Positions 1 to 60,223 are shown, numbered from the stretch's first letter. The stretch is 64,000 nucleotides of DNA from an uncultured Nitrospiraceae bacterium (GCA_964463965.1 CAYXED010000002.1:155387-219386); one strand, 5' to 3'. The notes: a model not told the origin generated them from the letters alone. Numbers and translations are program-made.

Positions 1-663
1 TCATTGTTGGATATTCCAAGAAAAATTCTTGGAGAATTTTGTCTTTCTGAATACAAAATTATTTCTTCATATTCATCAGAAAGCTTTCAGTATTGGTGGC
101 ATCGAGACCACCCTTATCAGTGGGTACAGGAAGGTGAGGAGGTATCTGTTTTGAATGTCGGTATCCTCATACCTTGTATTGATTTTAAATTAGAAAATGG
201 CCCTACTGTAATTATTCCTGGTTCACATCGCCTGACAAATAGGCCTCTAGGGTTGCATGCCACGGAATCGTATAAACATGAACAATGTGTTGGTACAAGC
301 CAAGGAGATATTTTTGTATATCATGGTAATTTATGGCATTCCGGTACTGCTAACAGATCAGGTGTAATGCGAAATCTTATATCGATGCATTTCGTAAAAA
401 AATATCTGACGCCTTGTGAAGACATGAGTCTCCAATACTTTCAGTTACAGATAGATAACGTTGAGTTAAAATCTTTGATGACAGGTTACCATGTCCCTCA
501 TGTGAATAAATTTGGGGCCAATCGAGGTTGGGTGTCAACTGTTTGGTGGCTTTGGTTTCTACGTTATCCTTTTTGGATAATGTTGAACATTAAAAGGGTT
601 TACTGGAGACTTAGAAGACGCTTATATCGTGCCATTCTCAGTATATTTATAGATGCTCAATAG
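1..663 (+). CDS. Phytanoyl-CoA dioxygenase (PhyH)-family Fe(II)/2-oxoglutarate oxygenase, 5'-truncated by the window edge
   Basis: The ORF is open to base 1 in frame 1. HRDHP (HxD iron ligands), IIPGSH and LWHSGTANRS (distal His plus Arg) fit the PhyH pattern. The first iron motif lies about 35 aa from the edge, so the N-terminus is outside the window. The C-terminal tail is Trp/Arg-rich. Confidence 0.7.
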   Translation, partial: SLLDIPRKILGEFCLSEYKIISSYSSESFQYWWHRDHPYQWVQEGEEVSVLNVGILIPCIDFKLENGPTVIIPGSHRLTNRPLGLHATESYKHEQCVGTSQGDIFVYHGNLWHSGTANRSGVMRNLISMHFVKKYLTPCEDMSLQYFQLQIDNVELKSLMTGYHVPHVNKFGANRGWVSTVWWLWFLRYPFWIMLNIKRVYWRLRRRLYRAILSIFIDAQ

Positions 664-761
664 TGTGATTGTGTAGTCGAGGCCTTCCTTTATTCCTCAC
701 GATTCAAAGATGAAAATTTTTGATCTCATCTGGCAACATCCAGAACATATAAACACGGAAA

Positions 762-2621
762 ATGTTTTTCTCTAAACAATCAGTTGATAAAGTATTCGAT
801 ACGCTTGGTATAGGAGCTTTGTATTGGCGTGTCCTGATTCTTCCTCATTCTGGAAAAGCTGTAGTGTTGTTGTTTCTGATGTTAGGAGGGGCTTTATTTG
901 AAGCTATGACCATTGGAATGGCTGTGCCTATTTTAGATACAGCGTCCAGTCAGGATAACTTACATGACAATAAGGTGGCTATTGAGGTGATAGCTATTCT
1001 CAAGAGTGCGGGCCTTCCATCGACTCAGGTGGCTGTCGTTTTTTCTCTTATTGTGTTGGCCGCGGTGCTTTTTTTGTTGCGTGCTGTAGTGGTATTTGTC
1101 CAACATTATACGGTTACATTTATGGCTACTGATATTTATCGTGAAACCAAATCTAGGCTTTTTCAACGAATGCTGACATCTCATTATGATTTTTTTTCCA
1201 AAAAAAGCCGTGGTGCATTAATGACGGATATGACTCAACCCGTTGAGGCCGTTCATACCAGTTTTGTGCAGTTGGGAGTTTTTGTGACAGGCATGGTTAA
1301 CTGTGCCGCGCTGTTTGCTCTAATGTTATATCTATCAAGTTGGACAACCGTTTTCATAGGGGTTCTTGGGGTGGCGGGATTTTCGTGGTGGAATAAAATT
1401 CTTTCACCTCGAGCATTTCGACGAGGTCGTGAGCTATATGAATTGCATAGGCAAGAATCGAAAGTTGAGCTTGATGCAATTGATGGGATCAAAGTCGTTA
1501 AATCAAATGTTTTAGAGGATGAGCTAGTTCGACAGCATCAAAGACTCTTGCAACAGGAAATTCAGCCAAGGTTAAGGATGGCAATCTTTCAACGTGGACC
1601 TGCGCTTGTTAATGAATTTGTTATTGTTCTTGTTGTCGTTGGTCTCAGCCTAATTGCGTTCTCTCCTTTTGCTGGGGGATTAACCTTTGCCACGCTGATT
1701 GCCTTATTATTCGCATTGCGAAGGGCTAGTGCGAGTATTTCGAGTGTCACGGCCGCATCAGTTGCTTTAAAAAAGTGGTGTCGCGCTGTTGAAGTTTTAG
1801 AGGAGATTGATCAACTTATTCCTCAAGAGCCTAGTGATGGGAAGCCCGTTGGTATGGTAGGTGAAATTGTCTTTGATCAAGTGTCTTTTTTTTACGATTC
1901 TCGACCGGATCAGTGGGTGTTGAGGGATGTTACTCTTAAATTACGTAAAGGGACGGTGACTGCAATCGTTGGTTTGACGGGTGCAGGTAAGAGCACAATT
2001 GCTGACCTAATGATTAGGCTTTATGATCAGAAACAAGGAGTCATTCTCGCTGATCAAGCTAATATTGGATCGTTGAACCTTAAGCTGTGGAGGAGCAAGA
2101 TCGGTTATCTTTCTCAGGATGTTTTTATCTTTAATGAAACCTTACGCGACAATATTGTTCTCTGGAGAGAAAACGTTTCTGATGACACTCTTCGATGGGC
2201 GTTACGTTCTGCAAAACTTGATGATTTTGTTTCGAGTCTCGATCAAGGTTACGATACTATTTTGGGAGATCGGGGCCTTCGCTTGTCTGGTGGGCAACGT
2301 CAGCGTGTTGCGATTGCAAGGGCCATTATAGCAAATCCTGAAATACTCATTTTAGATGAGGCTACTAGTGCGCTTGATAATGTAACGGAGAAGTTCGTCT
2401 ACAATGCGATTCGTGAAGCTAGCCAAAATATGATTGTTATTGTGATTGCACATCGTTTGGAAACAATTCGTGATGCGGATCAAATTGCCGTACTTCATGA
2501 GGGTAAGATTGTTGAGCAGGGCAGCCATGAAGAGTTGCTAGTTAAGCGAGGTGTGTACTCGAGGCTCTATGAAAACGAAGATTCAAAGAAGGAAGATGTG
2601 CCGCTTGAGGTAAGCCAGTAG
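762..2621 (+). CDS. ABC exporter half-transporter (fused TMD-NBD, MsbA/PglK-type)
   Basis: 619 aa. A hydrophobic N-terminal half is followed by an NBD with Walker A GLTGAGKST, signature LSGGQRQR, Walker B ILILDEATSALD and H-loop IAHRL. Confidence 0.9.
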   Translation: MFFSKQSVDKVFDTLGIGALYWRVLILPHSGKAVVLLFLMLGGALFEAMTIGMAVPILDTASSQDNLHDNKVAIEVIAILKSAGLPSTQVAVVFSLIVLAAVLFLLRAVVVFVQHYTVTFMATDIYRETKSRLFQRMLTSHYDFFSKKSRGALMTDMTQPVEAVHTSFVQLGVFVTGMVNCAALFALMLYLSSWTTVFIGVLGVAGFSWWNKILSPRAFRRGRELYELHRQESKVELDAIDGIKVVKSNVLEDELVRQHQRLLQQEIQPRLRMAIFQRGPALVNEFVIVLVVVGLSLIAFSPFAGGLTFATLIALLFALRRASASISSVTAASVALKKWCRAVEVLEEIDQLIPQEPSDGKPVGMVGEIVFDQVSFFYDSRPDQWVLRDVTLKLRKGTVTAIVGLTGAGKSTIADLMIRLYDQKQGVILADQANIGSLNLKLWRSKIGYLSQDVFIFNETLRDNIVLWRENVSDDTLRWALRSAKLDDFVSSLDQGYDTILGDRGLRLSGGQRQRVAIARAIIANPEILILDEATSALDNVTEKFVYNAIREASQNMIVIVIAHRLETIRDADQIAVLHEGKIVEQGSHEELLVKRGVYSRLYENEDSKKEDVPLEVSQ

Positions 2622-2803
2622 TGTTTGATTAAAATGGCTATATAATGATGACCACATTAAAAATGTTTGTAGTATCTCTTTGCCTTCCAAGTAAATTCTG
2701 GATTTTTAACACATAACGTGATGTTCCACTCACTTCTATTTTCTATGGGGCCAAAGCTTGAAGCTCCATGTATGCTGTTTGATTCTATCTACTGAGCTTA
2801 AGG

Positions 2804-4756
2804 ATGTTTCCATTTTTCATTATTTGTTTGTTTGCTTTTGGTGTTTTTGTAGTGTGTCTTTATTATTTAAGGGAGTTGCCTGTTGATGGACATAACTCTG
2901 ACGGTGTGAAGCAAATTCGCGGCGCAGCTAAAGCAGGAGAGTGGAAGTGGCCATCAGATATGCATAAGGCAATTCCTATGAAAGCACGAATGAAGGATGT
3001 TGGTGTGTTGAGTCTTGTTTTATTGCAACGGCTGTTGAATGACCGGAATACATTTTGGCCACTGAGTAGTGTGTCTGCCGCATATCATGCTGGGTCAATT
3101 GTTTTGATATATTTTGTGTCGAGTCATTACTGGGGAATGAGTGCAGCTCTCATTGTAACCGGCTTGTTCTCGTTTTCGGTATGGCCATTTCAGATTATTT
3201 TGAGGGGTGGGTATCAAGGTGTTTCTGTGTTCTTTGTATTGCTTGCTGTGTTGTGTCTCCAGTTGGCTACTGCGTATTCTGATTTATATGAGGTTTTATT
3301 GTATTGTGCGGCAGGTTTTTTCTTTGGTTTGATGATGTTTTCTTCATCATCATGTCGAAAGCTCATTCCATTGTTTCTAGCGGCGACGATTTATTCTTTG
3401 CAGAACTCAATTGTCCCCTTAAATATTACATTTGAAAATCTTTCAAGATTACATATTGAGATTCTTGGCAATCCTTTGCTTTTAGCTGGATGCGTTATCG
3501 CGGTTGGAGTAGGCGTGGTAGGGTTGTTTGCGTGTCTTATGTATAACCGCATTATTGCAGCTGTGTACTATGGATATATTCCCAGGTTCGTAGTTGGAAA
3601 TCTTTTGGCAAGACGCAAGGAGGCATCGATCGAGAAGTATCTTCGGCATCGACACAAAGTTTGTAATGTGGCCACCAGTGTATGTAGAAGTTATGTGGCA
3701 TATCTTGTGGTCTGCATTTTTCTCTCAAGAGAGAAAGTATTTTATGAAATGCAGGCTTCAATTATTTTAGGGTTTATTTTAGCCGCCCTTTTGCTGCTCC
3801 TTCCAAATGTTGTGCGTAGTCTTGCAGGGTATATTGAGTGGTGGACGGATGCTACGGTGATTAACCATTTTCTGCCTTATGGAGATAGGTTTTTGAATGC
3901 GAGGATGCCTTTTGACCACAAAAAAAATGGTGTTGGGTGGCGCTGGCACCCTAGGTTTTTTTTAAGAATGGCTCCATTTTTGTGGGGAGGATTTCTTTGT
4001 TCCATAGTGCTATTAATTATAGAGTTTCTTAAAGAGCCATCTTACAGCCACTTTATTGGTTATTTCTCCTTATTATGCGTCTCACTCTCCCCAATAATTT
4101 GGGGAGAGGTTACTCACGCACCACAAGAAGCTCGAAGCTATTATCCTTCTGTTCTGGGGTTATTAGTCTTAATCGGTTGGAGTGTTTCAGTTTTTGATTC
4201 ATCTTCTATCTTATTTATAGGCCTCACTGGGGCATTTGTACTCGCAGCTTTAATATGGAATATTCGCATGTTAGTGACTGATGTTTGGCCAGCTCGTATG
4301 GCTGTTCTGTCACTTATGAAAACGCTTGATCGTTTAGATGTAAAACGTTTGTATACCTATGACACGCCATTTAACCATATGTTTGTCTCTGCGCTTCCAG
4401 TTGAATATATGCAGCGATTAGAGGTTTGTTTTATACGGACTTTATCAGATATTTCAGAGGGTTATGTTGCAATCCCTGCTACGAGTGAAAAAGGAGTCAC
4501 TATGGTAGGTAACAGTGTTGCAATCAATCGAGGAGATTTTCGTGATGATCCTATCCTTAATTCTCTTCTCGATTCACGTTCCATCAATGATGTTGCTGTG
4601 GAAATGTTTAAGACTGAAAACTCTAGCCGGTTCTGGGTGCACGAAGATCAAGTAACAAGTTATCGTGATCTTATATTGAACGAGATTTTTGACGAAGATC
4701 GATGGCGTGGTAATGGATGGTTACTTGATGTAAGGAAAATTCACGCATTGGGTTGA
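2804..4756 (+). CDS. Large multi-pass membrane protein with soluble C-terminal domain (possible GT-C-fold glycosyltransferase; function unknown)
   Basis: 650 aa. About 12-14 hydrophobic segments span residues 1-500, followed by a soluble tail of about 150 aa. The first loop is acidic (PVDGHNSDG). There is no diagnostic catalytic motif. A taagg sequence lies upstream of the ATG. Confidence 0.5.
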   Translation: MFPFFIICLFAFGVFVVCLYYLRELPVDGHNSDGVKQIRGAAKAGEWKWPSDMHKAIPMKARMKDVGVLSLVLLQRLLNDRNTFWPLSSVSAAYHAGSIVLIYFVSSHYWGMSAALIVTGLFSFSVWPFQIILRGGYQGVSVFFVLLAVLCLQLATAYSDLYEVLLYCAAGFFFGLMMFSSSSCRKLIPLFLAATIYSLQNSIVPLNITFENLSRLHIEILGNPLLLAGCVIAVGVGVVGLFACLMYNRIIAAVYYGYIPRFVVGNLLARRKEASIEKYLRHRHKVCNVATSVCRSYVAYLVVCIFLSREKVFYEMQASIILGFILAALLLLLPNVVRSLAGYIEWWTDATVINHFLPYGDRFLNARMPFDHKKNGVGWRWHPRFFLRMAPFLWGGFLCSIVLLIIEFLKEPSYSHFIGYFSLLCVSLSPIIWGEVTHAPQEARSYYPSVLGLLVLIGWSVSVFDSSSILFIGLTGAFVLAALIWNIRMLVTDVWPARMAVLSLMKTLDRLDVKRLYTYDTPFNHMFVSALPVEYMQRLEVCFIRTLSDISEGYVAIPATSEKGVTMVGNSVAINRGDFRDDPILNSLLDSRSINDVAVEMFKTENSSRFWVHEDQVTSYRDLILNEIFDEDRWRGNGWLLDVRKIHALG

Positions 4757-4768: not shown

Positions 4769-5476
4769 ATGAAAGATTATCGCGCATTAGTTACTGGAGG
4801 CACGCGAGGCATTGGAGAAGCTATTGCCATTGCACTTGTTGATGGTGGCTATGAAGTTTTTGTGAGCGGTATTTCGCCAAATGGACAAGGGCCTTCTGGA
4901 AGCACGTATTTGCCATGTGACTTTTCTGATCCCTCTTCGCTTTCAAGCTTTGCTGATAAGGTTAAAGCATTGGATCTTTCAGTTCTTGTTAATAATGCAG
5001 GGATTAACAAAGTGGGTCCCTTTGAAAAATATGATCCATCAGATTTTGCTCGTCTTCAGCAAGTTAATGTCACTGCACCGTTTACTTTGTGTCGAGCTGT
5101 AATTGCTGGTATGCGACGACAAAAATTTGGAAGAATTGTAAACATCACGTCAGTATTCAGTGTTGTGAGCAAGGCTGAGCGTGCTGCGTATTCAACGACA
5201 AAATTTGCGTTATTTGGAATGAGTCGAGCGCTTGCGCTTGAGGTTGCACCCGACAATGTCTTGGTTAATTGCGTAGCACCTGGATTTGTTGATACAGACC
5301 TAACTCGGCGTATTTTGGGACAGGATGGAATTGAGATGATAGTGAAAGGCGTTCCCATAGGGCGTCTTGCAGAACCCAAGGAAATTGCAAATTTTGTAAA
5401 GTTTTTAGTGAGTAAAGATAATTCATATATGACCGGACAAAATATTGTTGTTGACGGTGGTTATACTAGTGCCTAA
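4769..5476 (+). CDS. Short-chain dehydrogenase/reductase (FabG-like)
   Basis: 235 aa with TGGTRGIGEAIA, NNAG and catalytic YSTTKFA (YxxxK). Confidence 0.9.
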   Translation: MKDYRALVTGGTRGIGEAIAIALVDGGYEVFVSGISPNGQGPSGSTYLPCDFSDPSSLSSFADKVKALDLSVLVNNAGINKVGPFEKYDPSDFARLQQVNVTAPFTLCRAVIAGMRRQKFGRIVNITSVFSVVSKAERAAYSTTKFALFGMSRALALEVAPDNVLVNCVAPGFVDTDLTRRILGQDGIEMIVKGVPIGRLAEPKEIANFVKFLVSKDNSYMTGQNIVVDGGYTSA

Positions 5477-6536
5477 TTTACTAATTCAATCCCACGTTGG
5501 TTCATATCAAGTTCATTTTGGAAATTTATTTTATGGGCTTGAATCCGGATTGCACGATCATGAACACCTTATTATTGATGCGAAGGTTGCTGAGTTGTAT
5601 GCGGCGCAGCTAGCTATAGCACTTAATGCGCGATCGGTGATTCGTATTGAGGCCAATGAAAAAAATAAATCTTTAGAAATGGTTCCCAGCTATGTAACAA
5701 AGCTCTTGGAAAACGGGATTAAGCGAGACCACGTTCTGATTGCTGTGGGGGGTGGCATCATACAAGACATTACTGCATTTATTGCGGCAACGTTATTTCG
5801 AGGGATTGCGTGGAGATTTTTTCCAACAACCTTGTTAGCTCAAGCTGATAGCTGTATTGGGTCTAAATCATCAATTAATATTGGGAAATACAAAAATCAG
5901 ATAGGTACTTTTACTCCCCCTCAAGACATTTGGATATCTATTGATGTTTTGGACACATTGGATGAGAGTGATATTCGATCGGGTATTGGAGAGATGATCA
6001 AGGTTCACATTATTTCTGGATGGGATGATGCAAGATCCATTACAGCGAATTACTCTAAGCTTCTAACAGATAGGGTAACTCTTGAAAATTACATTCTCAA
6101 TTCACTCAAAATCAAACAACAAAAAATTGAGGTAGATGAATTTGATAAAGCAGAGCGCCTGATTATGAATTATGGACATAGTTTTGGACATGCTATTGAA
6201 AGTGCAACAAATTATAAAATCCCTCATGGGATTGCTGTAACTATTGGAATGGATATGGCTAATTATGTCTCGTGGAAATTTGGGCTTGCTGCGCAGTCTG
6301 TATACGAAGAATTGCATTTAGTGCTAGCAGCTAATTATAAGGGATTTGATCAAATCAAAATTCCAGAAAAACAGTTTTTTTCTGCACTAGCTAGAGATAA
6401 GAAAAACATAGGATCAGATCTTTCGTTAATTCTTTTGCATGCTCCAGGGGAAGTGTTTCGTGATAGGTATCCAAACGATGGCCAATTGCATAATATTTGT
6501 AGGGAGTTTTGGAATTTACCACGCGTCCGCACTTAA
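5445..6536 (+). CDS. 3-dehydroquinate synthase-family enzyme (AroB-like / sugar-phosphate cyclase superfamily)
   Basis: GGGIIQDITAFIAAT, ADSCIGSKSSIN, GIGEMIKV, NYGHSFGHAIE and PHGIAVTIGM match the nucleotide-binding and metal-ligand motifs of the family. ATG 5445 overlaps the upstream gene by 32 nt. GTG 5469, preceded by ggtgg, is an alternative start. Confidence 0.8.
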   Translation: MLLTVVILVPNLLIQSHVGSYQVHFGNLFYGLESGLHDHEHLIIDAKVAELYAAQLAIALNARSVIRIEANEKNKSLEMVPSYVTKLLENGIKRDHVLIAVGGGIIQDITAFIAATLFRGIAWRFFPTTLLAQADSCIGSKSSINIGKYKNQIGTFTPPQDIWISIDVLDTLDESDIRSGIGEMIKVHIISGWDDARSITANYSKLLTDRVTLENYILNSLKIKQQKIEVDEFDKAERLIMNYGHSFGHAIESATNYKIPHGIAVTIGMDMANYVSWKFGLAAQSVYEELHLVLAANYKGFDQIKIPEKQFFSALARDKKNIGSDLSLILLHAPGEVFRDRYPNDGQLHNICREFWNLPRVRT

Positions 6537-6563
6537 ATTCCTATATCAAAGGGAACCGATAGA

Positions 6564-7550
6564 GTGATTAAGGTTGGCATTATAGGTTTTGGAAAAATGG
6601 GACGTATACGTTATGACACAATTCTTGATGATAGTGAAGCAAGGGTTGTTGCTATTGCAGAGCCTAGCCAAGAAATTAAACTGCCTAGAGTTAAGTTATA
6701 TTCTGACCCTGAAGCAGTAATTCGCTCCCCAGATGTTGATGCAGTATTTATTTGCACACCAAACTATCTAAATCATTCATTAACCTTACAAGCATTAGCA
6801 GCAAATAAGCATGTGTTTTGTGAAAAGCCTCCAGCGTTTTCTTCAAAAGATGTGGAGCAGGTTATTGATGCTGAGAGGATATCCTCTGGTATTACGCTTA
6901 TGTATGGGTTTAATCATCGCCATCACGATAGTATAAAATTTGCAAAAGATTTAATTGATTCTCAATCTCATGGGCGCTTGTTATGGATGCGTGGACGCTA
7001 CGGAAAAAGTGTCGATGAAAGTTTTTATCAGAATTGGAGATCAAAAAAGGAGTTTGCTGGGGGAGGAATATTAATGGATCAGGGGATCCATATGGTAGAT
7101 CTTTTTCTCATGATGGCAGGAGACTTTCATGATGTGAATGCATATGTATCAAATGTCTATTGGAAATTAGATGTCGAAGATAATGTTTTTGCAATTCTTC
7201 GTAATGATGAAGGGGTTGTCGCTTCATTGCATTCTACCATGACACAATGGAGACATTTGTTCTCTTTAGAAATGTTTTTGGAAAAAGGATATATTGTTAT
7301 TAATGGGCTGTTGACTTCTTCTGGGACATATGGTGAAGAAGCGGTAACAATAGCAAAAAATAGAACAACCGCTCCTGCCGCTGCATGGAGTGATGAAGAA
7401 CACATACGTTTTGAGGTAAATAATTCATGGAAGTATGAAGTTCAACATTTCTTTCAATCAATTAGAGATAAGACGCCTATACAAACTGGAAATTCTCAAG
7501 ATGCACTAAAATTGATGCGTGTAATTGACAAGATTTATGCACAGGACTGA
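6564..7550 (+). CDS. Gfo/Idh/MocA-family NAD(P)-dependent oxidoreductase
   Basis: 328 aa with GIIGFGKMGR Rossmann loop, VFCEKPP, FGFNHRHH and GGGILMDQGIHMVDLF. It is a clear paralogue of 37049-38101. Confidence 0.9.
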   Translation: MIKVGIIGFGKMGRIRYDTILDDSEARVVAIAEPSQEIKLPRVKLYSDPEAVIRSPDVDAVFICTPNYLNHSLTLQALAANKHVFCEKPPAFSSKDVEQVIDAERISSGITLMYGFNHRHHDSIKFAKDLIDSQSHGRLLWMRGRYGKSVDESFYQNWRSKKEFAGGGILMDQGIHMVDLFLMMAGDFHDVNAYVSNVYWKLDVEDNVFAILRNDEGVVASLHSTMTQWRHLFSLEMFLEKGYIVINGLLTSSGTYGEEAVTIAKNRTTAPAAAWSDEEHIRFEVNNSWKYEVQHFFQSIRDKTPIQTGNSQDALKLMRVIDKIYAQD

Positions 7551-7560
7551 TAGAAGCTAA

Positions 7561-8124
7561 ATGAACGATCACAAATTTCTTCAAGATTATTTTTCTCGCT
7601 ACCGTACCGCAATTTTTGGACCTGATATTTCAGAGAATCTTATTGCATTAAGAAACCTTATGATTCAAGCACGCGAAGCAAATCATAAGACGATTATTGC
7701 TGGTAATGGTGGTAGTGCGGCAATTGCTAGTCATTGTGCTGTAGATTTTAGTAAAAATGCGAAAACTCGGTGTGTGAATTTTAATGAGCCTAGTCTTGTT
7801 ACGTGCCTTGCCAATGATTATGGATATGAGAGATGGTTAGAAAAAGCATTTGAGTTGTACTCTGATGATGGGGATGTTGCAATTTTGATTAGCTCTAGTG
7901 GGCAATCAGAAAATATGTTGCGGGCAGCTGAGTATGCACAAGTCCAAGGGTTGCCTGTTGTAACTTTCACCGGTTTTTCTCCTGACAACCCTCTTCAAAA
8001 ATACGGAACGTTAAACTTTTGGGTTGATAGTAAGGCATACAATATTGTTGAAATGACCCATCAGATTTGGCTACTAGCAGTATGTGATTTAATTATTGGC
8101 GCTGCTGAATATAGTGCATCTTGA
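7561..8124 (+). CDS. SIS-domain sugar-phosphate isomerase-like protein (GmhA/DiaA type)
   Basis: 187 aa with IIAGNGGSAAIASHCAVDF and AILISSSGQS, the patterns of the SIS fold. Confidence 0.8.
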   Translation: MNDHKFLQDYFSRYRTAIFGPDISENLIALRNLMIQAREANHKTIIAGNGGSAAIASHCAVDFSKNAKTRCVNFNEPSLVTCLANDYGYERWLEKAFELYSDDGDVAILISSSGQSENMLRAAEYAQVQGLPVVTFTGFSPDNPLQKYGTLNFWVDSKAYNIVEMTHQIWLLAVCDLIIGAAEYSAS

Positions 8125-8223
8125 TCGTTGCGATTGTGACACGTACATGGTTAAAAAAATCATTTTTGGAAGGATATGCAGTTTTGGTCTTAGTAATTTC
8201 TAGCGGTCAATGGGGGTAGTCTT

Positions 8224-8892: not shown

Positions 8893-8966
8893 AGACATGT
8901 AGTTTAGTAATTCATCTTTTTTCAATTGGTATTTGATTTGCTCATATTACTTCCTACCTTTTTACC

Positions 8967-48624: not shown

Positions 48625-48690
48625 AAATATTTTGACATGGAAGAGTTAAAGTTATTTGGATAAAAACTTTATCAGGTAAAACTTGCAGGG

Positions 48691-52947: not shown

Positions 52948-54087
52948 ATGAAAAAACCATGTGTTATTTTCGTAGCTAACCGTGGGTATGGTCTGTTTAG
53001 TTCTCGCTTGATTTTGATGAAATATTTTTTATCTCACGGTTGGACAGTGGTTGCTGCAGCAGCTCCGGATATATACTTAGAAAAATTGAACGATGTTGGT
53101 ATTACTATTGAGCCTGTGCCGTTCTACCGAGGAGGACTCTCTTTGGAGAACGACTGGAAGGCTTTTGAAAAATTACTTCGCGTCTACAAGAAATTCTCTC
53201 CTCATTTGGTACATCATTTTCAGGCAAAGCCCATTATTATGGGAACTATAGCCGCAAAAAAAAATTGTAAAGCAAAGATTGTAAATACTGTGACAGGCTT
53301 GGGACATGCATTTATCCATGGAGGTATAGTCAAGTATCTTGCTTCATTGGGGTATAGGTTGTGTCTCAGTCGTAGTGATATGACTGTATTTCAGAACCAC
53401 GATGATCTTAATTTTTCTCTTACAAAGAAGTGGGTTTCTATAGAAAAAACAAAATTGATAATAGGCTCTGGAGTTGATATTCAACGTTTTAAACCGACAC
53501 AAATTTTTGATTATAAATCTACCCCTCGTATTCTTATGGTTGCTCGACTGTTGTGGCAAAAGGGAGTATTAGAGTTTGTAGAGTCCGCAAAACTACTTAA
53601 GAAAATCTTTCCAAATGTTTTATTTCAGTTAGTTGGTGAACGAGACCTTATTCACCCTGATGCCGTATCAGAAAAGTGGATTCAAGATGTTGTTGACCAG
53701 GAGATAATTCAATATCTAGGGTATATCACGGATATTTATTCAATCCTTTCTTCTTCCTATCTTGTCGTACTTCCTTCCTATCGTGAAGGTTTGCCTCGTA
53801 TACTTCTAGAAGCGGCAGCATGTGGGGTTCCTGCAGTTACAACTAGTGCGCCGGGATGTAGGGAGGCAGTAGTTGATGGTGAAACGGGATGGTTAGTTCC
53901 TCCAAGAGATAGTGGGGCATTAGCCCAAGCAATTTCAAGAGTGATAGAGGATCCAGTGTTAAGGTCTAGGGCGGGAAGGTCTGCACGAAAAAGAATTGAA
54001 AAAATGTTTGACATTCAAATCATTGCAGAGCAACAGATTGCAGTTTACCGGGAGATTGGTATTCAGATTGATATGGCATTAGAGTGA
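52948..54087 (+). CDS. Family 4 (GT-B) glycosyltransferase
   Basis: EGLPRILLEAAACGVPAV (E-x7-E). ATG 52948 lies just after the asnB stop. The track's 5' extension overlaps asnB. Confidence 0.9.
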   Translation: MKKPCVIFVANRGYGLFSSRLILMKYFLSHGWTVVAAAAPDIYLEKLNDVGITIEPVPFYRGGLSLENDWKAFEKLLRVYKKFSPHLVHHFQAKPIIMGTIAAKKNCKAKIVNTVTGLGHAFIHGGIVKYLASLGYRLCLSRSDMTVFQNHDDLNFSLTKKWVSIEKTKLIIGSGVDIQRFKPTQIFDYKSTPRILMVARLLWQKGVLEFVESAKLLKKIFPNVLFQLVGERDLIHPDAVSEKWIQDVVDQEIIQYLGYITDIYSILSSSYLVVLPSYREGLPRILLEAAACGVPAVTTSAPGCREAVVDGETGWLVPPRDSGALAQAISRVIEDPVLRSRAGRSARKRIEKMFDIQIIAEQQIAVYREIGIQIDMALE

Positions 54088-54971
54088 TGAACAGTCCACG
54101 CTACAGTAATTTATATCATCAGCCAGTTATTATCATCGGGGCAGGGCGGTCAGGTACAAATATGTTGAGAGATGTTTTAGTCCAACTGCCAGGGTTTGGA
54201 ACTTGGCCGTGTGATGAAATCAATTATATTTGGAGGCATGGGAACGTACGCTATCCTTCTGATGAATTTCTTCCTGAGCAGGCATTATTTGAGGTGAAGA
54301 AATATATTCGAGAGTCATTTTCAAATTTGGCACGAAAGCATCGTTTAACATATGTGGTAGAAAAAACCTGTGCTAACTCTCTTCGTGTTGATTTTGTGAG
54401 ACAAGTTTTTCCAAATGGTAAGTTTATTTTTATTGTTCGAGATGGGAGAGATGTTATTGCTTCAGCAATGAAGAGGTGGACTGCAAGTTTTGATCTTCCA
54501 TATGTATTGAGAAAAGCCTGGTATGTTCCAATATCGGACCTTCCGTATTATGGGGTTAAATATTTTTTGAATCATCTTCATAGAGCATGGTCTCGTGATG
54601 GAAAGCTCGCCTATTGGGGCCCATGTTTTGAGGGGATGAAGGATATATTGCATTCTAAATCATTGTCAGAAATTTGTGCGATGCAATGGGTTCGTTGTGT
54701 TGAGAAAGCAGAGCAGGGTTTGTGTAAAGTTGACCCATCAAGTGTATATCAGTTGAGGTATGAAGATTTTGTCAAACAACCAAGCTTGGAAGTTGATCGC
54801 TTGGCGACGTTTTTAGGGATTGATGCTCCTTCAACAGAGTGGTTTCAGCAGTGCTTGATGGATGTTAAACCTCAGTATATTGGAAAGTGGAAAAGTGAAC
54901 TTGATAATAGGGATTTATCTCGTGTGCAACCTCTCATTCAGAGCACATTGCAGCGGCATGGCTATGTATAG
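54084..54971 (+). CDS. Sulfotransferase-family protein
   Basis: 295 aa with IIIGAGRSGTNMLRD (5'-PSB-like) and FIFIVRDGRDVIAS (3'-PB-like). GTGA overlap with the upstream gene. Confidence 0.8.
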   Translation: MMNSPRYSNLYHQPVIIIGAGRSGTNMLRDVLVQLPGFGTWPCDEINYIWRHGNVRYPSDEFLPEQALFEVKKYIRESFSNLARKHRLTYVVEKTCANSLRVDFVRQVFPNGKFIFIVRDGRDVIASAMKRWTASFDLPYVLRKAWYVPISDLPYYGVKYFLNHLHRAWSRDGKLAYWGPCFEGMKDILHSKSLSEICAMQWVRCVEKAEQGLCKVDPSSVYQLRYEDFVKQPSLEVDRLATFLGIDAPSTEWFQQCLMDVKPQYIGKWKSELDNRDLSRVQPLIQSTLQRHGYV

Positions 54972-55014
54972 AAGAGTGTGCCATAGGCTGTTAGGGTAGG
55001 GTGGCTGTCTATGT

Positions 55015-56169
55015 ATGATTGTCGTATTCAGTTCTGTTTTGTATGGTATAGGAGGTTTTTTTTCATTGAATACTAAATTCTTATTTTTTAAAGGACGGGT
55101 TGCGCTGTATGCAATTTTAAAATCTTTAAATATTGGGCCTGGTGACAAAGTCGTGCTTCCAGGTTTTACCTGCATTGTTGTGCCTAATGCGGTTCGGTAT
55201 GTTGGTGCGACGCCCGTTTACGTTGATATCGACCCTAAAACATTTAATATTGATATATCAAAGATTGATCAAAAATCTCTTTCAGGAGCACGTGCAATTG
55301 TTGTTCAGCATACATTTGGTATTCCAGCTGATGTTGATAGTGTAAAGAATATAGCAAGTCCTTTGGGTTGCGTTACTATTGAAGATTCTTGTCAGGCATT
55401 GGGTTCGAAGTACAAAGGGAAGGAAGTTGGGGCTTCTGGGGATTTTTCATTTTTTTCTTCCCAATGGTCAAAACCCGTAACTACTGGATTGGGTGGTTGG
55501 GCAGTTGTAAATAACCCAGAGTTTATCGGTAATATGGAGAGAATCTACCCTGAGTTTGATTTTCCATCTTGGGCAGAGGTTTTTGAGCTACGTGTACAAT
55601 ATTTTATGCATTCCATACTTTTCAGGCCTGCTTTATTTTGGTTTTTACAGGAACTTTATAGAGCACTTTCACTGCGTGGGATAATTATTAGTTCGTCAAG
55701 TATTGATGAACTAGAAGGACACATGCCTTTGAAATATGCTAAGTCAATGTCTCGATGGCAAAAATCTATCCTTTTACGAAAGCTTCAAGATTTTGATCGA
55801 CATATTGAGCATAGAAAATGGGTTGTTTCAATGTACGAAAAATATTTAGAAAATTTTGAAATAGATGTTGCAGTGCTTTCAAAATACCATGATCCTGTTT
55901 TTTTAAGGTATCCTGTAGTCTTAAAAAGACATGATAAGCAAGTAGTATTACAACATGCACGCAGAGCTGGAATTGAGTTGGGGGACTGGTTTCTTTCTCC
56001 AGTGCATCCAAACTGCAATACTTGGGGAAGTGTTGGTTATGAACGTGGAATGTGCCCTATAGCTGAGAGTGTTTGTGAAAGGATTGTCAATCTCCCATGT
56101 CATATTGGTGTGGGAGAAAAATATGTGAATCGTGTAGCAGACTTTCTTTCAGGCCAAGGGTTAAACTAA
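55015..56169 (+). CDS. DegT/DnrJ/EryC1-family aminotransferase-like protein (divergent)
   Basis: 384 aa with GDKVVLPGFTCIVVPNAV and a candidate PLP lysine in SSQWSKPVTTGLGG. The N-terminus is shorter than in canonical members. Confidence 0.7.
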   Translation: MIVVFSSVLYGIGGFFSLNTKFLFFKGRVALYAILKSLNIGPGDKVVLPGFTCIVVPNAVRYVGATPVYVDIDPKTFNIDISKIDQKSLSGARAIVVQHTFGIPADVDSVKNIASPLGCVTIEDSCQALGSKYKGKEVGASGDFSFFSSQWSKPVTTGLGGWAVVNNPEFIGNMERIYPEFDFPSWAEVFELRVQYFMHSILFRPALFWFLQELYRALSLRGIIISSSSIDELEGHMPLKYAKSMSRWQKSILLRKLQDFDRHIEHRKWVVSMYEKYLENFEIDVAVLSKYHDPVFLRYPVVLKRHDKQVVLQHARRAGIELGDWFLSPVHPNCNTWGSVGYERGMCPIAESVCERIVNLPCHIGVGEKYVNRVADFLSGQGLN

Positions 56170-56204
56170 CGAGTAATATTTAAAATGATGCCATATTGTA
56201 AAAC

Positions 56205-57443
56205 ATGGGCAGTGATCTTTCCGCTGAAAATTTGATGGTTTCACCAGACTCTCATTTAGAAAATATCTCTTCAAATATAGGCTCTCGAGATAAGTTTCTT
56301 CCGTTTCATATTCCTGATATTGGAGATGAAGAAATAAATGCAGTTATTGAAACATTAAAATCTGGTTGGTTAACTACTGGGCCAAAAGTACATCAGTTTG
56401 AGAAAGAATTTTCAGAATTCATTGGTGTACGCCATGCCATTGCCGTCAATTCCGGTACTGCAGCATTGCATTTGGCCTTAGCAGCGATTGGAGTTACTGA
56501 AGGTGACGAGATTATTGTGCCTACAATGACGTTCGGGGCTACCGCTGAGGTTGTATGTCACTTGAAGGCAAAACCAATATTTGTCGATTGTAACAAAAAG
56601 ACTATGAATATTGATCTTGATGGGGTTCAAAAAGCCATTACTTCAAAAACAAAAGCTATCATTCCAGTTCATATGGGGGGGCATCCGTGTGAAATGGACA
56701 AACTCTCAGCAATAAGCAGCGCTGCTTCAATTAAGGTCATTGAGGATGCTGCGCACGCATTTCCAGCACGGCATATGGGTGTAATGATAGGGAATATTAG
56801 TGATATTTCTTGTTTTTCATTTTATGCTACGAAAACGTTGACCACTGGAGAGGGTGGAATGGTTACGACAAATGATGATAAATGGGCCAATCAAATTCTG
56901 GCTATGAGTCAACATGGAATCAATAAGGGTGCTTGGAATCGATATGCTTCTCAGGGCTCTTGGTACTATGAAATTGCCACTCTCGGCTATAAGTATAATC
57001 TGTCGGATATGGCCGCAGCTATTGGCATTCAGCAGTTGAAAAAAACATCCTTGTTTTTAAAGGTACGTGAGAGAATCGCAGGCTTGTATACTAGGAGTTT
57101 TTCTGATTTACCTGAAATTAAAACTCCAGTTTGTTCAAGTGATATCAATCATGCGTGGCACCTGTATGTTATTCAGCTAGAGCTTGAAAGGCTGACTATA
57201 ACTAGAAACGAATTTATTGACTTATTGAAAGAAAAAAATATTGGAACATCTGTTCATTTCATTCCTCTACACTTACATCCTTTCTACCGAGACACCTTTG
57301 GGTATTCCTCAGAAAACTTCCCCAATGCCACAAGAACCTATGAGCGAATTATTTCATTGCCTATTTATTCTAAAATGAAAGATGATGATATTCATTATGT
57401 GATTGAGGTAGTGCGTAGTATTATTCAACGTTGTAAAAAATGA
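56205..57443 (+). CDS. DegT/DnrJ/EryC1-family nucleotide-sugar aminotransferase (PglE/WecE-like)
   Basis: 412 aa with GWLTTGPKV and the PLP lysine in FSFYATKTLTTGEGGM. Confidence 0.9.
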   Translation: MGSDLSAENLMVSPDSHLENISSNIGSRDKFLPFHIPDIGDEEINAVIETLKSGWLTTGPKVHQFEKEFSEFIGVRHAIAVNSGTAALHLALAAIGVTEGDEIIVPTMTFGATAEVVCHLKAKPIFVDCNKKTMNIDLDGVQKAITSKTKAIIPVHMGGHPCEMDKLSAISSAASIKVIEDAAHAFPARHMGVMIGNISDISCFSFYATKTLTTGEGGMVTTNDDKWANQILAMSQHGINKGAWNRYASQGSWYYEIATLGYKYNLSDMAAAIGIQQLKKTSLFLKVRERIAGLYTRSFSDLPEIKTPVCSSDINHAWHLYVIQLELERLTITRNEFIDLLKEKNIGTSVHFIPLHLHPFYRDTFGYSSENFPNATRTYERIISLPIYSKMKDDDIHYVIEVVRSIIQRCKK

Positions 57444-58030
57444 TTAAGAGACTTTTTGATGTGAGCATGGCTTTGACTGGGCTTGCTTTGCTGTTTCCTC
57501 TTTTGATTGCCGTGGCATGCCTTATAAAAATAGATTCCCTCGGTCCAGTGATTTTTAGGCAAGAACGTATCGGTCAGCGTTTTCAGCCCTTCATTATATA
57601 CAAGTTTCGTACAATGATTGCTGATACTTCGTCACAGGAAACTCAGGGATTGAGAAGTCAAAAACATCGAATCACTCATATTGGGAAATGGCTGCGTAAA
57701 ACAAAAATTGATGAACTGCCTCAACTACTGAACGTGTTCAAGGGAGACATGAGTTTAGTCGGTCCTCGTCCTGAAATCAGATTATATGTTGAAAGGTTTC
57801 GCAGTGATTATGAAGAGGTCCTTACAGTACAGCCTGGGATGACCGATCTTGCATCACTCAAATATCGGGATGAGGAGCGTGTTCTTGAGCTTTCTGTAGA
57901 TCCAGAAGAAGAATACATGCATAAGATTTTGCCAGAAAAAATTAGATTGGCTAAGGAATATATGAAACATTCGTCATTTCTTTTTGACTTAAGGCTAATA
58001 TTTCGAACATTGTTATGTCTTAGATATTAA
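57440..58030 (+). CDS. Small monotopic phosphoglycosyl transferase (PglC/WbaP C-terminal type, bacterial sugar transferase)
   Basis: 196 aa with N-terminal re-entrant helix KRLFDVSMALTGLALLFPLL and KIDELPQLLNVFKGDMSLVGPRP. Confidence 0.9.
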   Translation: MIKRLFDVSMALTGLALLFPLLIAVACLIKIDSLGPVIFRQERIGQRFQPFIIYKFRTMIADTSSQETQGLRSQKHRITHIGKWLRKTKIDELPQLLNVFKGDMSLVGPRPEIRLYVERFRSDYEEVLTVQPGMTDLASLKYRDEERVLELSVDPEEEYMHKILPEKIRLAKEYMKHSSFLFDLRLIFRTLLCLRY

Positions 58031-58062: not shown

Positions 58063-58097
58063 TCCCGATGGTTTTATTGACCGTCGGGATTTTTTTT
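58063..58097 (+). terminator. Rho-independent terminator
   Basis: tcccgatgg (58063-58071) pairs with ccgtcggga (58081-58089). This gives 9 bp including one G-U, a 9-nt loop and then T8 (58090-58097). It starts 33 nt after the sugar-transferase stop. Confidence 0.8.
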
Positions 58098-58330
58098 GCT
58101 TTGAGTATAATCAGGTGTTTTAATATTTTTGTATCTATAGTAGTATTTTTTAGAAATAACTGTGTTATCTTAGATTCTGAACAATATAATACCTGTGGTA
58201 TGTCTATGAGGGGGATTGTAAGACATTTGTCTCTATTCAGGTTGATGACTTGAATCATTTTTAGTTTTTTGATGCGATGCTCTGATTATTTTCATAACGC
58301 GAAGGGAGTAGCCTTAACTTAGGAATAGGT

Positions 58331-60223
58331 ATGATGCAATTTCTTTTAGATTTTCGTCGGCCTATTATTGTGCTTTTGCATGTGGGCTTAATCGTTCTAG
58401 CCAACTTTATTGCATTTTGGTTGTTATATGGCCCGGTAGTTCCTCTCGCGTTACTAGGAAGCTATGTTGATTTATTACCATGGTTGGTAGTTATTCGTGG
58501 GCTTACTTTTATTCCTTTTAGGCTTTATGAAGGATTGTGGCGGTACGCTGGCATATATGATCTTCGAAATATTATTGGAGCAGTTTTTATTAGTACTTCA
58601 GTTTTTTATATGGTCGTTTACTGGGGTTTGAACGAGGATACATATCCAAAACCTGTTATCCTTATTGACGCACTTGTGCTGATCATCTTGCTCGGTGGAA
58701 GTAGAATGGCAAGACGTCTCTATCGTGATGCAGGAAGGGTAAAGCCTGGAAAACGTATATTAATATATGGTGCTGGTGGTGCTGGTGAACGAATTGTTAG
58801 GGACATGCAAAATAATCCATTTTATGAATTTGACCCTATTGGTTTCTTGGACGATGACCCATCAAAAGTTGGAGGTCATATTCATGGAGTCAAGGTATTA
58901 GGGACGCGTGGTGCGCTTGCTAAGGTGATAAGAAATACTGATCCTGATGCTATTCTAATTGCTATTCCTTCTGTGAAGCCAGTACCAATTCGGGAGATTC
59001 TTGAGGTTTTAGCGCCATTTAAAGTCCCAATTCAAACACTACCTAATGTTAGGGATATGCGTAAAGATGATGTCAATATGAGTCAAGTCAGGAGCCTTTC
59101 CATTAATGATTTGTTGGAACGTGCTCCGATAGGTCTTGATTCTAAACCTATTAAGGATCTTATACAGGGAAAGCGAATTTTAGTTACAGGTGCTGGTGGG
59201 TCTATCGGTGCTGAATTGTGCCGGCAGATTATTTCATTCCACCCATCTGCACTTGTTTTGTATGAAAGGTATGAATACGGCTTGTATACCGTTGCAAGCG
59301 AGTTAGCATCTGAAAATAAAGCTTGGCCCTTACATGCAGTTATAGGAGATGTTACGGATGCGCAGCGTATCCACGAGGTTTTTTTAGAGCATAGACCAGA
59401 AGTTATTTTTCATGCCGCTGCGCATAAGCATGTTCCACTTATGGAATTAAACCCTTGCGAAGCTGTAAAAAATAACATTAGTGGAACAAGAATGATGGCA
59501 GAGGCAGCGAAACGCCACCATGTGGAACGGTTCATTCTAATCTCAACAGATAAAGCTGTAAGTCCATCTAGTATAATGGGAGCTACAAAACGGGTTTCAG
59601 AGTTATTGATGCAAGGCATGCATCTAGAGAATGGCAATGCCTACAGTGGAGTACGGTTTGGAAATGTTCTTGGTAGTGCTGGAAGTGTGATCCCTAGGTT
59701 TTTGGAACAAATTAAGGCTGGTGGGCCAGTAACAGTTACCCATCCAGAGATGAGAAGGTATTTCATGTTGATTCCAGAGGCGGTACAGCTAGTCTTGTAT
59801 GCGGCAGCTTTAGCAAAAGGGGGGGAACTTTTTGTCCTAGAAATGGGGGAGTCAATCAAAGTTGTCGATTTGGCACGTAATATGATCCGCTTATCTGGTT
59901 TCGTTCCTGAAGAGGAGATGGCAATAACTTTTGTCGGACGAAGGCCTGGTGAAAAACTACAGGAAGAACTAATTGATAGCAATGAGACCCTTGAGTCTTC
60001 TTCAGTTGAACGTGTTTTTAAAATTCGTTCCAGTTATGTCCCTGAACCTTCTTTTCTATCTAAGACTGTGGAAGAGCTGGAGAAGCGTGCTGCCAGTGGC
60101 GATACTCGTGGCGTAATTGATGGTCTCAAAAGGCTTGTTCCAACCTATAGGCCTGCTGAAACGTCAGTATCAAATACATTGGCTCTTGGAGAAAAATCTA
60201 GAGATGTATCAGAGAAGATTTAA
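58331..60223 (+). CDS. Membrane-anchored nucleotide-sugar 4,6-dehydratase (PglF/CapD/WbpM-like)
   Basis: 630 aa with four N-terminal hydrophobic helices, two Rossmann loops (LIYGAGGAGERIV, LVTGAGGSIGAEL) and MGATKRVSE. Confidence 0.9.
   Translation: MMQFLLDFRRPIIVLLHVGLIVLANFIAFWLLYGPVVPLALLGSYVDLLPWLVVIRGLTFIPFRLYEGLWRYAGIYDLRNIIGAVFISTSVFYMVVYWGLNEDTYPKPVILIDALVLIILLGGSRMARRLYRDAGRVKPGKRILIYGAGGAGERIVRDMQNNPFYEFDPIGFLDDDPSKVGGHIHGVKVLGTRGALAKVIRNTDPDAILIAIPSVKPVPIREILEVLAPFKVPIQTLPNVRDMRKDDVNMSQVRSLSINDLLERAPIGLDSKPIKDLIQGKRILVTGAGGSIGAELCRQIISFHPSALVLYERYEYGLYTVASELASENKAWPLHAVIGDVTDAQRIHEVFLEHRPEVIFHAAAHKHVPLMELNPCEAVKNNISGTRMMAEAAKRHHVERFILISTDKAVSPSSIMGATKRVSELLMQGMHLENGNAYSGVRFGNVLGSAGSVIPRFLEQIKAGGPVTVTHPEMRRYFMLIPEAVQLVLYAAALAKGGELFVLEMGESIKVVDLARNMIRLSGFVPEEEMAITFVGRRPGEKLQEELIDSNETLESSSVERVFKIRSSYVPEPSFLSKTVEELEKRAASGDTRGVIDGLKRLVPTYRPAETSVSNTLALGEKSRDVSEKI

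Follow-up and report, generated by a model that had tools for sequence, protein, structure and literature searches.

In this study, we examined the gene content, layout and relatives of a 64,000-nucleotide stretch of DNA from an uncultured Nitrospiraceae bacterium (GCA_964463965.1 CAYXED010000002.1:155387-219386), hereafter called the window. We propose, with a probability of roughly 0.7, that the final 60 kb of a flexible glycan island of the cell surface lie in the window. The island, read in one direction throughout, takes up no less than 79 kb and 72 genes and is built as a mosaic of cassettes, each of which would make one activated sugar or one decoration. The architecture is the one expected for such loci, and a few undescribed enzyme families are held within it.

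The mosaic character emerges from comparison with a marine metagenome-assembled genome (MAG), GCA_002726235.1, which is labelled as a Nitrospiraceae bacterium and contains the best named homologues of several island proteins. Order and polarity are the same there in two fetched stretches that together span at least 63 kb of one contig. The genes for NeuB, NeuC, the CBS-nucleotidyltransferase, LegB, LegC and a 675-amino-acid (aa) protein follow each other in this order with identities of 55, 36, 52, 74, 75 and 56%, respectively, and upstream of them an epimerase pair, an HMGL-like gene, E1 alpha, E1 beta and PhyH are 73–83% identical. The genes between and after these conserved cassettes differ and have been replaced. 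Single cassettes are additionally found on unrelated contigs, as in L092, L176, L177 and L178, where legionaminic acid (Leg) genes stand together with a homologue of a 695-aa island protein. Since order is kept in the related MAG, some cassettes are replaced and single cassettes recur on unrelated contigs, the island is mosaic in nature, and its cassettes travel separately, always among glycan genes.

The layout is uniform. A listing of open reading frames (ORFs) and profile searches showed that, between positions 4 and 60223, all ORFs of 100 aa or more that match Pfam or NCBIfam are on the plus strand, and the 13 minus-strand ORFs of 100–139 aa are each nested in a domain-bearing plus-strand gene. 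Positions 1–60223 carry 55 genes, all on the plus strand and with 97% of the sequence coding, if the acyl carrier protein of 79 aa is counted. An earlier note on this DNA, made from the sequence alone, had described an island of about 60 kb in which all credible ORFs lie on the plus strand, thirteen junctions are four-base start/stop overlaps and only one intrinsic terminator is convincing. The single strand is borne out, as are the overlaps, twelve of which were recovered mechanically and the thirteenth, at 46673, by reading: the longest ORF begins at 46655, but the ATGA at 46673 is a true overlap and its ATG opens the sequence MKKKVLIVGG, a Rossmann-type N-terminus. The overlap at 41518 needs a TTG start, and public gene calls begin that protein 8 codons downstream. 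The terminator-like hairpin at 58063–58097 likewise stood as the best site in 60 kb and occupies the only 300-nt intergenic gap; terminator-like sites overall are close to chance (16 vs 15.4, 18 vs 15.0 and 18 vs 14.2 expected) in a scan that models sigma-70 consensus sites and simple hairpins only. As to size, the one-strand island is real, with 60 kb as the minimum imposed by the edge of the window.

A 586,671-bp metagenome scaffold (ENA ERZ23498633 scaffold_4) contains the window with full identity; the window also matches the 246,783-bp JGI contig Ga0115658_1000031, and its first base corresponds to position 9240 of locus L088, with an identical overlap. On the parent contig at least 19.2 kb of further sugar genes, all on the plus strand, precede it. 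Since base 1 lies inside a PhyH gene and sugar genes continue upstream, the island must measure at least 79 kb with at least 72 genes. A leftward walk by a metagenome scan with the upstream DegT protein gave an overlap with one 1.6-kb fragment only; in 31 of 80 metagenome loci a GHMP-kinase homologue accompanies this protein. On the right the island ends sharply, with the UvrA paralogue, HU, an M16 peptidase and polynucleotide phosphorylase (PNPase) on the opposite strand, and GC skew, positive throughout the island, is approximately zero at the strand switch. The UvrA paralogue is 66–68% identical to proteins of Nitrospira/Nitrospirales MAGs, without synteny. In none of 80 genomes carrying the paralogue does HU or a glycan island stand beside it, so that this neighbourhood is uninformative on the island. 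The Leptospira rfb locus, which a GC content of about 40%, the single strand and the sialic-type genes had first brought to mind, was rejected, as Nitrospiraceae or Nitrospira MAGs are the only close relatives that bear a name; the host is an uncultured bacterium of marine origin.

Some further observations concern composition. At 1–60000, sigma-70-like hexamer pairs are depleted relative to shuffles that preserve dinucleotides (23 vs 51.7 +/- 6.4, 28 vs 44.0 +/- 7.0 and 44 vs 53.7 +/- 8.1), and the flank at 59800–64000 shows no such deficit (7 vs 6.8 shuffled). GC content dips to 0.36–0.39 at 46000–50000 and 54000–58000, where the glycosyltransferase, Wzy-like and initiation genes reside, and is about 0.41–0.43 elsewhere; lowered GC is common in exchanged O-chain genes. 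Scans of the window for transfer RNAs, Rfam families, long repeats and tandem repeats returned no transfer RNA, no RNA family and no repeat of note.

The coordinates and family matches of the genes are collected in Table 1. The legionaminic-acid-type cassette (12447–27539) appears to offer a candidate gene for every step towards a nonulosonic acid activated with cytidine monophosphate (CMP), and its second, divergent NeuB and second cytidylyltransferase point to a further nonulosonic acid variant. The two fusion proteins with a CTP_transf_3 domain match this Pfam model with 82 and 85 bits and the PseF equivalog with 103.8 and 27.5 bits against a cut-off of 205.7. The CBS-nucleotidyltransferase of the cassette has mannose-1-phosphate guanylyltransferase as its best NCBIfam match (160 bits vs 440) and reaches no equivalog cut-off.

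The cassette is followed by the 695-aa protein. None of its 25 homologues carries a Pfam domain, and the family profile found nothing in the PDB by sequence. The AlphaFold model of the protein (predicted local distance difference test, pLDDT, 86.8; predicted template modelling score, pTM, 0.86) led in a Foldseek search to GT-B proteins, i.e. 3dzc (2.4e-7), HepE 4xsu (9e-7) and the polysialyltransferase 5wcn (1.4e-5), with uridine diphosphate (UDP)-N-acetylglucosamine 2-epimerases, HepE, OtsA and polysialyltransferase among the matches at E-values of 2e-7 to 1e-5 and target TM scores of 0.5–0.6. All six fetched contexts of homologues are Leg-type clusters; in four of them the gene directly follows a DegT/LegC-like gene, and L093 is a fifth case, with an unknown gene of 515 aa between the two. 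Because of the predicted fold and the fixed position, we regard the protein as a candidate glycosyltransferase that would serve the legionaminic-type pathway. Similarly, in Tannerella a gene for a transferase of a Leg derivative lies directly downstream of the Leg genes and beside a methyltransferase, and such transferases are scarcely known (PMC5420450). A methyltransferase gene follows here as well, the 3' end of which contains a 15-nt AT-rich unit in 1.9 copies (30516–30544).

A second group of genes (36273–44443) combines a KdsB-like CMP-transferase with aldolases. No window protein matches DAHP_synth_1 or KdsA, and the cassette holds an HpcH/HpaI aldolase instead, in which the residues aligned with the GEH, VRPSWNDP, QIE and GPADLS segments of HpaI are conserved; in our reading, these supply the His and Arg used in catalysis and the Glu and Asp that bind the metal. 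On the unrelated contig L093, homologues of the GFO oxidoreductase (59%), the methyltransferase (37%), the SIS isomerase (59%) and the fructose-6-phosphate-aldolase-type (FSA-type) protein (73%) lie beside an HpcH aldolase gene. Consequently, the SIS and FSA genes at 43–44 kb belong with the aldolase cassette and not with the cytidine diphosphate (CDP)-hexose genes that follow. By analogy with the series KdsD, KdsA, KdsC and KdsB, the cassette could build a keto-deoxy acid sugar via aldolase chemistry, with CMP activation as a subsequent step; a literature search for an HpcH aldolase together with a cytidylyltransferase found no description.

The same cassette encodes a 539-aa protein of a large family without a Pfam model (1674 representatives at E <=0.001, 553 at <=1e-30). 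E253-G254 and H385-P386 are invariant in 40 aligned sequences and lie 132 residues apart, comparable to the essential E153-G154 and the CMP-binding H278-P279 of the NmB polysialyltransferase, which are 125 residues apart (PMC2169525). The first acidic position of the D/E-D/E-G motif, which together with HP makes up the motif set of the bacterial sialyltransferase families GT38, GT52 and GT80, is Y, H or F in the family, so that the motif is matched in part only. With these sialyltransferase-like motifs the family is an unclassified candidate for a transferase. An hhalign comparison of the 539-aa and 695-aa families was not significant (probability 1.2%), with only a short common C-terminal stretch; a tblastn search of the 539-aa protein against 72,556 plasmids gave no match, and sequence or profile searches of the PDB with five unknown proteins and two family alignments gave no meaningful match.

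Between these two blocks, a cassette for acyl decoration (30626–36135) was found, in which FkbH, the carrier protein, the acyltransferase and the reductases would supply glyceroyl or hydroxyacyl groups for N-acylation; a literature search for FkbH together with O-antigen found nothing relevant. At the left, the genes at 4769–12284 probably constitute a cassette for cyclase and C-methylation chemistry. A literature search for a sugar-phosphate cyclase together with O-antigen likewise found nothing relevant, and to our knowledge there is no precedent in O-chain clusters for a sugar-phosphate cyclase, two B12 radical S-adenosylmethionine (radical-SAM) enzymes, FkbH with a carrier protein, an HpcH aldolase and a sulfotransferase. 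The P-loop protein of 348 aa in this cassette may be a second sulfotransferase or a kinase. It has a 41% identical homologue in the Leg-type locus L176. In antibiotic pathways, deoxysugars receive two-carbon branches from E1 alpha/beta pairs, and the upstream E1 pair among epimerases makes a branched-chain sugar possible.

The multi-pass proteins of the window are limited to the ATP-binding cassette (ABC) exporter, two orphans of ~11 and ~9 helices and the PglF-like protein. The exporter, a candidate flippase or exporter for a lipid-linked glycan, matches the HepA (362 bits), MsbA (337) and PglK (246) families, in all cases under the equivalog cut-offs. The ~11-helix orphan of 650 aa has no Pfam, NCBIfam or PDB match, and three homologues of 28–40% identity were obtained when 8000 word-sharing candidates from a database of 5.8 billion proteins were scored. 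D52 and D65 in loop 1 and a WxWPSDMHK stretch are invariant, a K-D pair is conserved in the first loop, and one homologue adjoins a DegT gene and an NTP-transferase-like gene. The AlphaFold model from the four-sequence alignment (pLDDT 46.6) was unusable and kept out of the fold search. Loop 1, being acidic and conserved, faintly suggests a GT-C-like transferase or ligase, and with no match to STT3 or Wzy_C on any window protein this orphan is a possible substitute for an oligosaccharyltransferase. The ~9-helix protein at 49681, which lies among the glycosyltransferases and for which neither Pfam nor the PDB gave a match up to E = 10, is a Wzy-like candidate; Wzy proteins are often unrecognisable by sequence.

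The initiating phosphotransferase and the glycosyltransferases of Wzx/Wzy-type clusters are present (Bac_transf 194.5 bits; family 2 and 4 glycosyltransferases, GT2 and GT4, 109.8 and 116.6 bits). As to RfbH and RfbI of 3,6-dideoxyhexose synthesis, no protein reaches the cut-off for RfbH (best 186.9 vs 423); in the CDP-hexose block, RmlC-like and RmlD-like genes follow instead. The DegT match of the initiation module (55015–58030) amounts to 446 bits, and the DegT-family protein at 55015 itself, which reaches no equivalog cut-off, may be a diverged or non-aminotransferase member.

Table 1. Features of the window and its flanks, from left to right; scores in bits, followed by the cut-off of the model where given.
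Feature	Position	Strand	Match or remark
Upstream genes		+	NUDIX, DegT, second B12 radical-SAM enzyme (663 aa), aldo-keto reductase, three epimerase/dehydratases, GHMP kinase
Upstream genes (continued)		+	class I/II aminotransferase, HMGL-like enzyme, E1 alpha/beta thiamine-diphosphate pair, two PhyH, four unknown proteins
PhyH-family dioxygenase, 3' part	1–663	+	PhyH 52.7; gene start 240 nt upstream of window
Fused ABC exporter (membrane domain + ATPase), MsbA/HepA/PglK type	762–2621	+	ABC_membrane, ABC_tran; ~7 hydrophobic segments
Orphan membrane protein, 650 aa	2804–4756	+	~11 transmembrane helices, C-terminal soluble part
Short-chain dehydrogenase/reductase (SDR)	4769	+	Pfam
AroB-related sugar-phosphate cyclase	5445–6536	+	TIGR04425 460.3 vs 400, above
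GFO/IolG-like oxidoreductase	6564	+	Pfam
SIS/GmhA-like isomerase	7561	+	Pfam
PIG-L deacetylase	8224	+	Pfam
P-loop protein, 348 aa	8967–10013	+	P-loop-like N-terminus; very weak Sulfotransfer_3 match, E 0.11
B12-binding radical-SAM enzyme, KedN5-like	10113–12284	+	KedN5 family 211 vs 700, below
NeuB/LegI	12447	+	TIGR03569 447.4 vs 399.65, above
ATP-grasp protein	13562	+	Pfam
HAD protein	14470	+	Pfam
NeuC/LegG (hydrolysing 2-epimerase)	15137	+	TIGR03568 385.4 vs 235.9, above
Second NeuB, divergent	16459	+	223 vs 399.65, below
CMP-transferase fused to GFO	17481	+	CTP_transf_3
SDR	19269	+	Pfam
NeuD/LegH N-acetyltransferase	20175	+	TIGR03570 191.3 vs 160.8, above
Methyltransferase	20962	+	Pfam
CMP-transferase fused to cupin	21802	+	CTP_transf_3
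Class III aminotransferase	22984	+	Pfam
CBS-nucleotidyltransferase	24164	+	CBS + NTP_transferase architecture
LegB, NAD-dependent 4,6-dehydratase	25347	+	TIGR04180 442.8 vs 475
LegC aminotransferase	26352	+	TIGR04181 486.9 vs 420, above
695-aa protein	27565–29652	+	no Pfam model for family; predicted GT-B fold
SAM-dependent methyltransferase	29706–30530	+	Methyltransf_12, Methyltransf_23
MaoC dehydratase fused to SDR	30626	+	Pfam
FkbH domain fused to GNAT	31831	+	FkbH TIGR01686 322.8 vs 146.65
Acyl carrier protein, 79 aa	33667–33906	+	carrier matches 26–31, all under cut-offs 70–106; DSM serine motif
Hexapeptide acyltransferase	33899	+	Pfam
Two SDRs	34601, 35377	+	Pfam
KdsB-like CMP-transferase	36273	+	kdsB TIGR00466 163.3 vs 155.2; NF003952 233.5 vs 193
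GFO oxidoreductase	37049	+	Pfam
Methyltransferase-like protein	38098	+	Pfam
HpcH/HpaI class II pyruvate aldolase	39128	+	HpaI structure 4b5s, E 8e-52
HAD phosphatase	39934	+	Pfam
PGDH-like 2-hydroxyacid dehydrogenase	40586	+	Pfam
539-aa protein with EG...HP motifs	41518	+	no Pfam model
SIS isomerase	43147	+	Pfam
Fructose-6-phosphate aldolase/transaldolase-like (FSA-type) protein	43760	+	Pfam
Glucose-1-phosphate cytidylyltransferase RfbF	44364	+	TIGR02623 346.8 vs 300.25, above
4,6-dehydratase, RfbG-like	45241	+	CDP-glucose dehydratase TIGR02622 201.7 vs 278.45
RmlC-like epimerase	46224	+	rmlC 28.3
RmlD-like reductase	start most likely 46673; cassette end 47539	+	rmlD 181.8 vs 224.05
GT2	47536	+	109.8
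GT1-like protein, weak	48691	+	Pfam
Membrane protein, ~9 helices	49681–50949	+	no family match
AsnB-type amidotransferase	50982	+	asn_synth_AEB 493.7 vs 267.1
GT4	52849	+	116.6
Sulfotransferase	54084–54971	+	Pfam
DegT-like protein	55015–56169	+	DegT match in two separate stretches only, 189.7
PglE/PseC-like aminotransferase	56205	+	PseC 391.6 vs 423.5
Small PglC-type polyprenyl-phosphate sugar-phosphate transferase	57440–58030	+	Bac_transf 194.5
Intrinsic-terminator-like hairpin	58063–58097	+	hairpin 58063–58089, then eight T; 11 pairs, 6 G-C
Membrane-anchored PglF/WbpM-like nucleoside-diphosphate-N-acetylhexosamine (NDP-HexNAc) 4,6-dehydratase	58331–60223	+	Polysacc_synt_2 377.3, CoA_binding_3, N-terminal hydrophobic segments; last island gene
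UvrA paralogue, 879 aa	60254–62893	-	UvrA_inter + ABC_tran; right-hand boundary, first minus-strand gene

From this inventory we infer the substrates, the order of the steps and the range of possible products. The PglF/PglE/PglC-like module would make a 4-amino-4,6-dideoxy-HexNAc of the bacillosamine type and load it on undecaprenyl phosphate. RfbF, the dehydratase, the epimerase and the reductase would provide a CDP-6-deoxyhexose, the legionaminic-acid set a CMP-nonulosonic acid and the KdsB-like cassette another CMP-activated keto-acid sugar, with the cyclase, the radical-SAM enzyme and the methyl-, sulfo- and amido-transferases adding further decoration. The GT2, GT4 and GT1-like proteins together with the two candidates of 695 and 539 aa would then build a repeat or oligosaccharide by adding the CDP-derived 6-deoxyhexose, one or two CMP-nonulosonic acids and the CMP-keto-acid sugar, and the ABC exporter, together with both membrane orphans, may flip, polymerise or attach the product, presumably an O-antigen, a capsule or a protein glycan.

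The earlier note had read four nucleotide carriers out of these families. CMP is supported by three CTP_transf_3 enzymes, one of them above the KdsB cut-offs, and UDP by the PglF-like dehydratase, whose 377 bits on Polysacc_synt_2 indicate strong family membership. For CDP, RfbF clears its cut-off and the RfbG-like dehydratase falls short; for guanosine diphosphate (GDP), the predicted CBS-nucleotidyltransferase is there and the carrier itself is assigned by analogy only. Profile search also recovered everything else that the note had named: the carrier protein, the radical-SAM enzyme (of the B12 type), the sulfotransferase, the three methyltransferase-like genes and the amidotransferase (AsnB-like). 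Its suggestion of one locus survives in that the blocks always occur among glycan genes, but they are separate elsewhere and swapped in the nearest relative. Likewise, several activated sugars are indeed implied, but size and one-strand layout are unexceptional, since marine Pelagibacterales O-chain clusters cover 10–90 kb and 8–101 genes (PMC11898729).

Several points weigh against the proposed island and its chemistry. Among the window proteins and the precomputed Pfam hits upstream, Wzx, Wzz, Wza/Wzc, KpsMT, WaaL and STT3 are all missing, and the canonical glycosyltransferases number only three for so many sugar pathways. The exporter shares architecture and superfamily with PglK, MsbA and HepA and scores 246 bits on the PglK model NF050066, the cut-off of which is 1000. 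LegB has TIGR04180 as by far its best family and lies slightly under the cut-off, the PglE/PseC-like aminotransferase is under the PseC cut-off, and the RfbG-like dehydratase is not only under the CDP-glucose dehydratase cut-off but about level with the deoxythymidine diphosphate (dTDP)-glucose dehydratase model (184.9). GDP as the carrier of the CBS-nucleotidyltransferase is suggested solely by analogy with the legionaminic pathway of Campylobacter, for which a GDP-linked route to CMP-legionaminic acid in C. jejuni was reportedly described by Schoenhofen et al. in 2009. The left boundary lies beyond the sequence covered, which makes 79 kb and 72 genes lower bounds, and the affiliation of the host depends on one UvrA paralogue and the label of one MAG.

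It should also be considered whether the window unites two or more independent glycoconjugate loci lying side by side, e.g. a locus for protein glycosylation with nonulosonic acids beside an O-antigen or capsule cluster. This is a serious but minority possibility: the cassettes travel apart in other genomes, gaps of 90–300 nt mark cassette borders (e.g. before 12447, 16459, 21802, 36273 and 58331), membrane proteins form two groups at 762–4756 and 49681, and a terminator precedes the last gene. However, only one initiating phosphotransferase is encoded in 79 kb, the canonical glycosyltransferases are confined to a single block at 47.5–54 kb, the related MAG holds the overall order over at least 63 kb, and no flagellin, Maf, S-layer or capsule-export genes are nearby.

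The left third, from PhyH to the B12 radical-SAM enzyme, could further be taken, with the upstream E1, HMGL and second radical-SAM genes, as a small-molecule cluster of the aminocyclitol or branched-sugar type that abuts a glycan island. The cyclase exceeds the TIGR04425 cut-off, the best match of the radical-SAM enzyme is KedN5-like and thus in a C-methyltransferase family of antibiotic pathways, an exporter adjoins these genes, and E1 alpha/beta pairs attach two-carbon branches in antibiotic deoxysugars. We nevertheless consider this unlikely: polyketide, nonribosomal-peptide or aglycone genes were not seen, NDP-sugar enzymes stand on both flanks on the same strand and with short gaps, in the related MAG, too, the counterparts of the upstream cassette lie amid sugar genes, and a homologue of the 650-aa orphan lies beside a DegT gene. 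That a single promoter upstream drives the whole 60 kb as one operon with one glycan as its product, as the co-oriented genes, the 13 four-base overlaps, the one strong terminator and the low number of sigma-70-like sites would allow, is very improbable, since the cassettes are exchanged independently between relatives and fourteen gaps of 87–300 nt could hold promoter types outside the model of a scan that was limited to sigma-70 consensus sites and simple hairpins.

Returning to the flexible glycan island as the preferred interpretation, the 539-aa and 695-aa families and the aldolase cassette can be joined in a bolder proposal that is rather doubtful as a whole. Here, 36273–44443 would encode an undescribed route to a CMP-activated 3-deoxy-2-ulosonic acid, in which HpcH/HpaI, helped by the FSA-type aldolase and the SIS isomerase, replaces a phosphoenolpyruvate-dependent synthase of the KdsA/NeuB type, the HAD phosphatase and the KdsB-like enzyme complete the activation, and the 539-aa EG...HP family serves as a dedicated sialyltransferase-like transferase. 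The 695-aa GT-B family would be a new glycosyltransferase linked to legionaminic acid, and the surface glycan would receive a carbocyclic or C-methylated unit from the AroB-related cyclase and the B12 radical-SAM enzyme.

Surface glycans of marine bacteria decide encounters with phages, grazers and particles, and their islands are the most variable part of the genome. The island studied here would stack nonulosonic acids, a second keto-acid sugar, sulfate, amide and acyl decorations and a possible cyclitol or C-methyl unit in one locus. It changes no general principle, island type, size and modularity being already known; it offers targets for enzyme discovery, namely the 695-aa family of predicted GT-B fold, the 539-aa family with sialyltransferase-like motifs and the aldolase-based cassette that may make a new CMP-sugar.

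Among known systems, the Campylobacter pgl locus (PglF, PglE, PglD, PglC, PglK, PglB) has counterparts in the PglF-, PglE-like, PglC-type and NeuD/PglD-family proteins and possibly in the PglK/MsbA-type half-transporter of the island, in which, however, no STT3/PglB was detected and the pgl-like parts are scattered over 60 kb. The pathway to 3-deoxy-D-manno-oct-2-ulosonic acid (Kdo; KdsD, KdsA, KdsC, KdsB) is mirrored by the SIS isomerase, HAD phosphatase and KdsB-family cytidylyltransferase of one cassette, with the place of a KdsA-type synthase taken by the HpcH/HpaI and FSA-type aldolases, a GFO protein and methyltransferase-like and phosphoglycerate-dehydrogenase-like (PGDH-like) proteins. 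Defining enzymes of each of the pgl, Kdo and 3,6-dideoxyhexose systems were looked for and not found, and the island is therefore not a member of any of them. The CMP-Leg pathway of Campylobacter jejuni (PtmE, LegB, LegC, LegH, LegG, LegI, LegF) finds candidates for all its steps in the island, where the nucleotidyltransferase likewise has a CBS domain. In contrast to it, the cytidylyltransferases of the island are fused to GFO or cupin, LegB scores slightly under its cut-off, a second divergent NeuB, an ATP-grasp, a HAD and a class III aminotransferase gene are interleaved, and no flagellar or Maf genes lie nearby.

The general O-glycosylation locus of Tannerella forsythia with its transferases for Pse/Leg derivatives (PMC5420450) shares the GT-B-type candidate transferase gene directly downstream of CMP-nonulosonic acid genes with a methyltransferase beside it, and in part the logic of D/E-D/E-G and HP motifs for CMP-sugar transferases. 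The nonulosonic acid of that locus bears a glyceroyl group (PMC5420450); in the island, such a group could come from FkbH and the carrier protein. The Tannerella enzymes, however, are of ~445 aa and TagB-like; the 695-aa protein has neither a sequence match to them nor the HP motif, which in the island sits in the 539-aa protein of the KdsB-like cassette. The best likeness is found in the O-chain and replacement flexible islands of marine Pelagibacterales and Alteromonas (PMC11898729, PMC4033161), with which the locus shares tens of kb of sugar-nucleotide, transferase and decoration genes, cassette-wise exchange between close relatives and a setting between conserved housekeeping genes. With at least 79 kb it ranges near the upper end of their sizes, and it differs from them in that neither Wzx nor Wzz nor a ligase is recognisable. 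We regard it as a large instance of this marine flexible kind with an unusual enzyme content.

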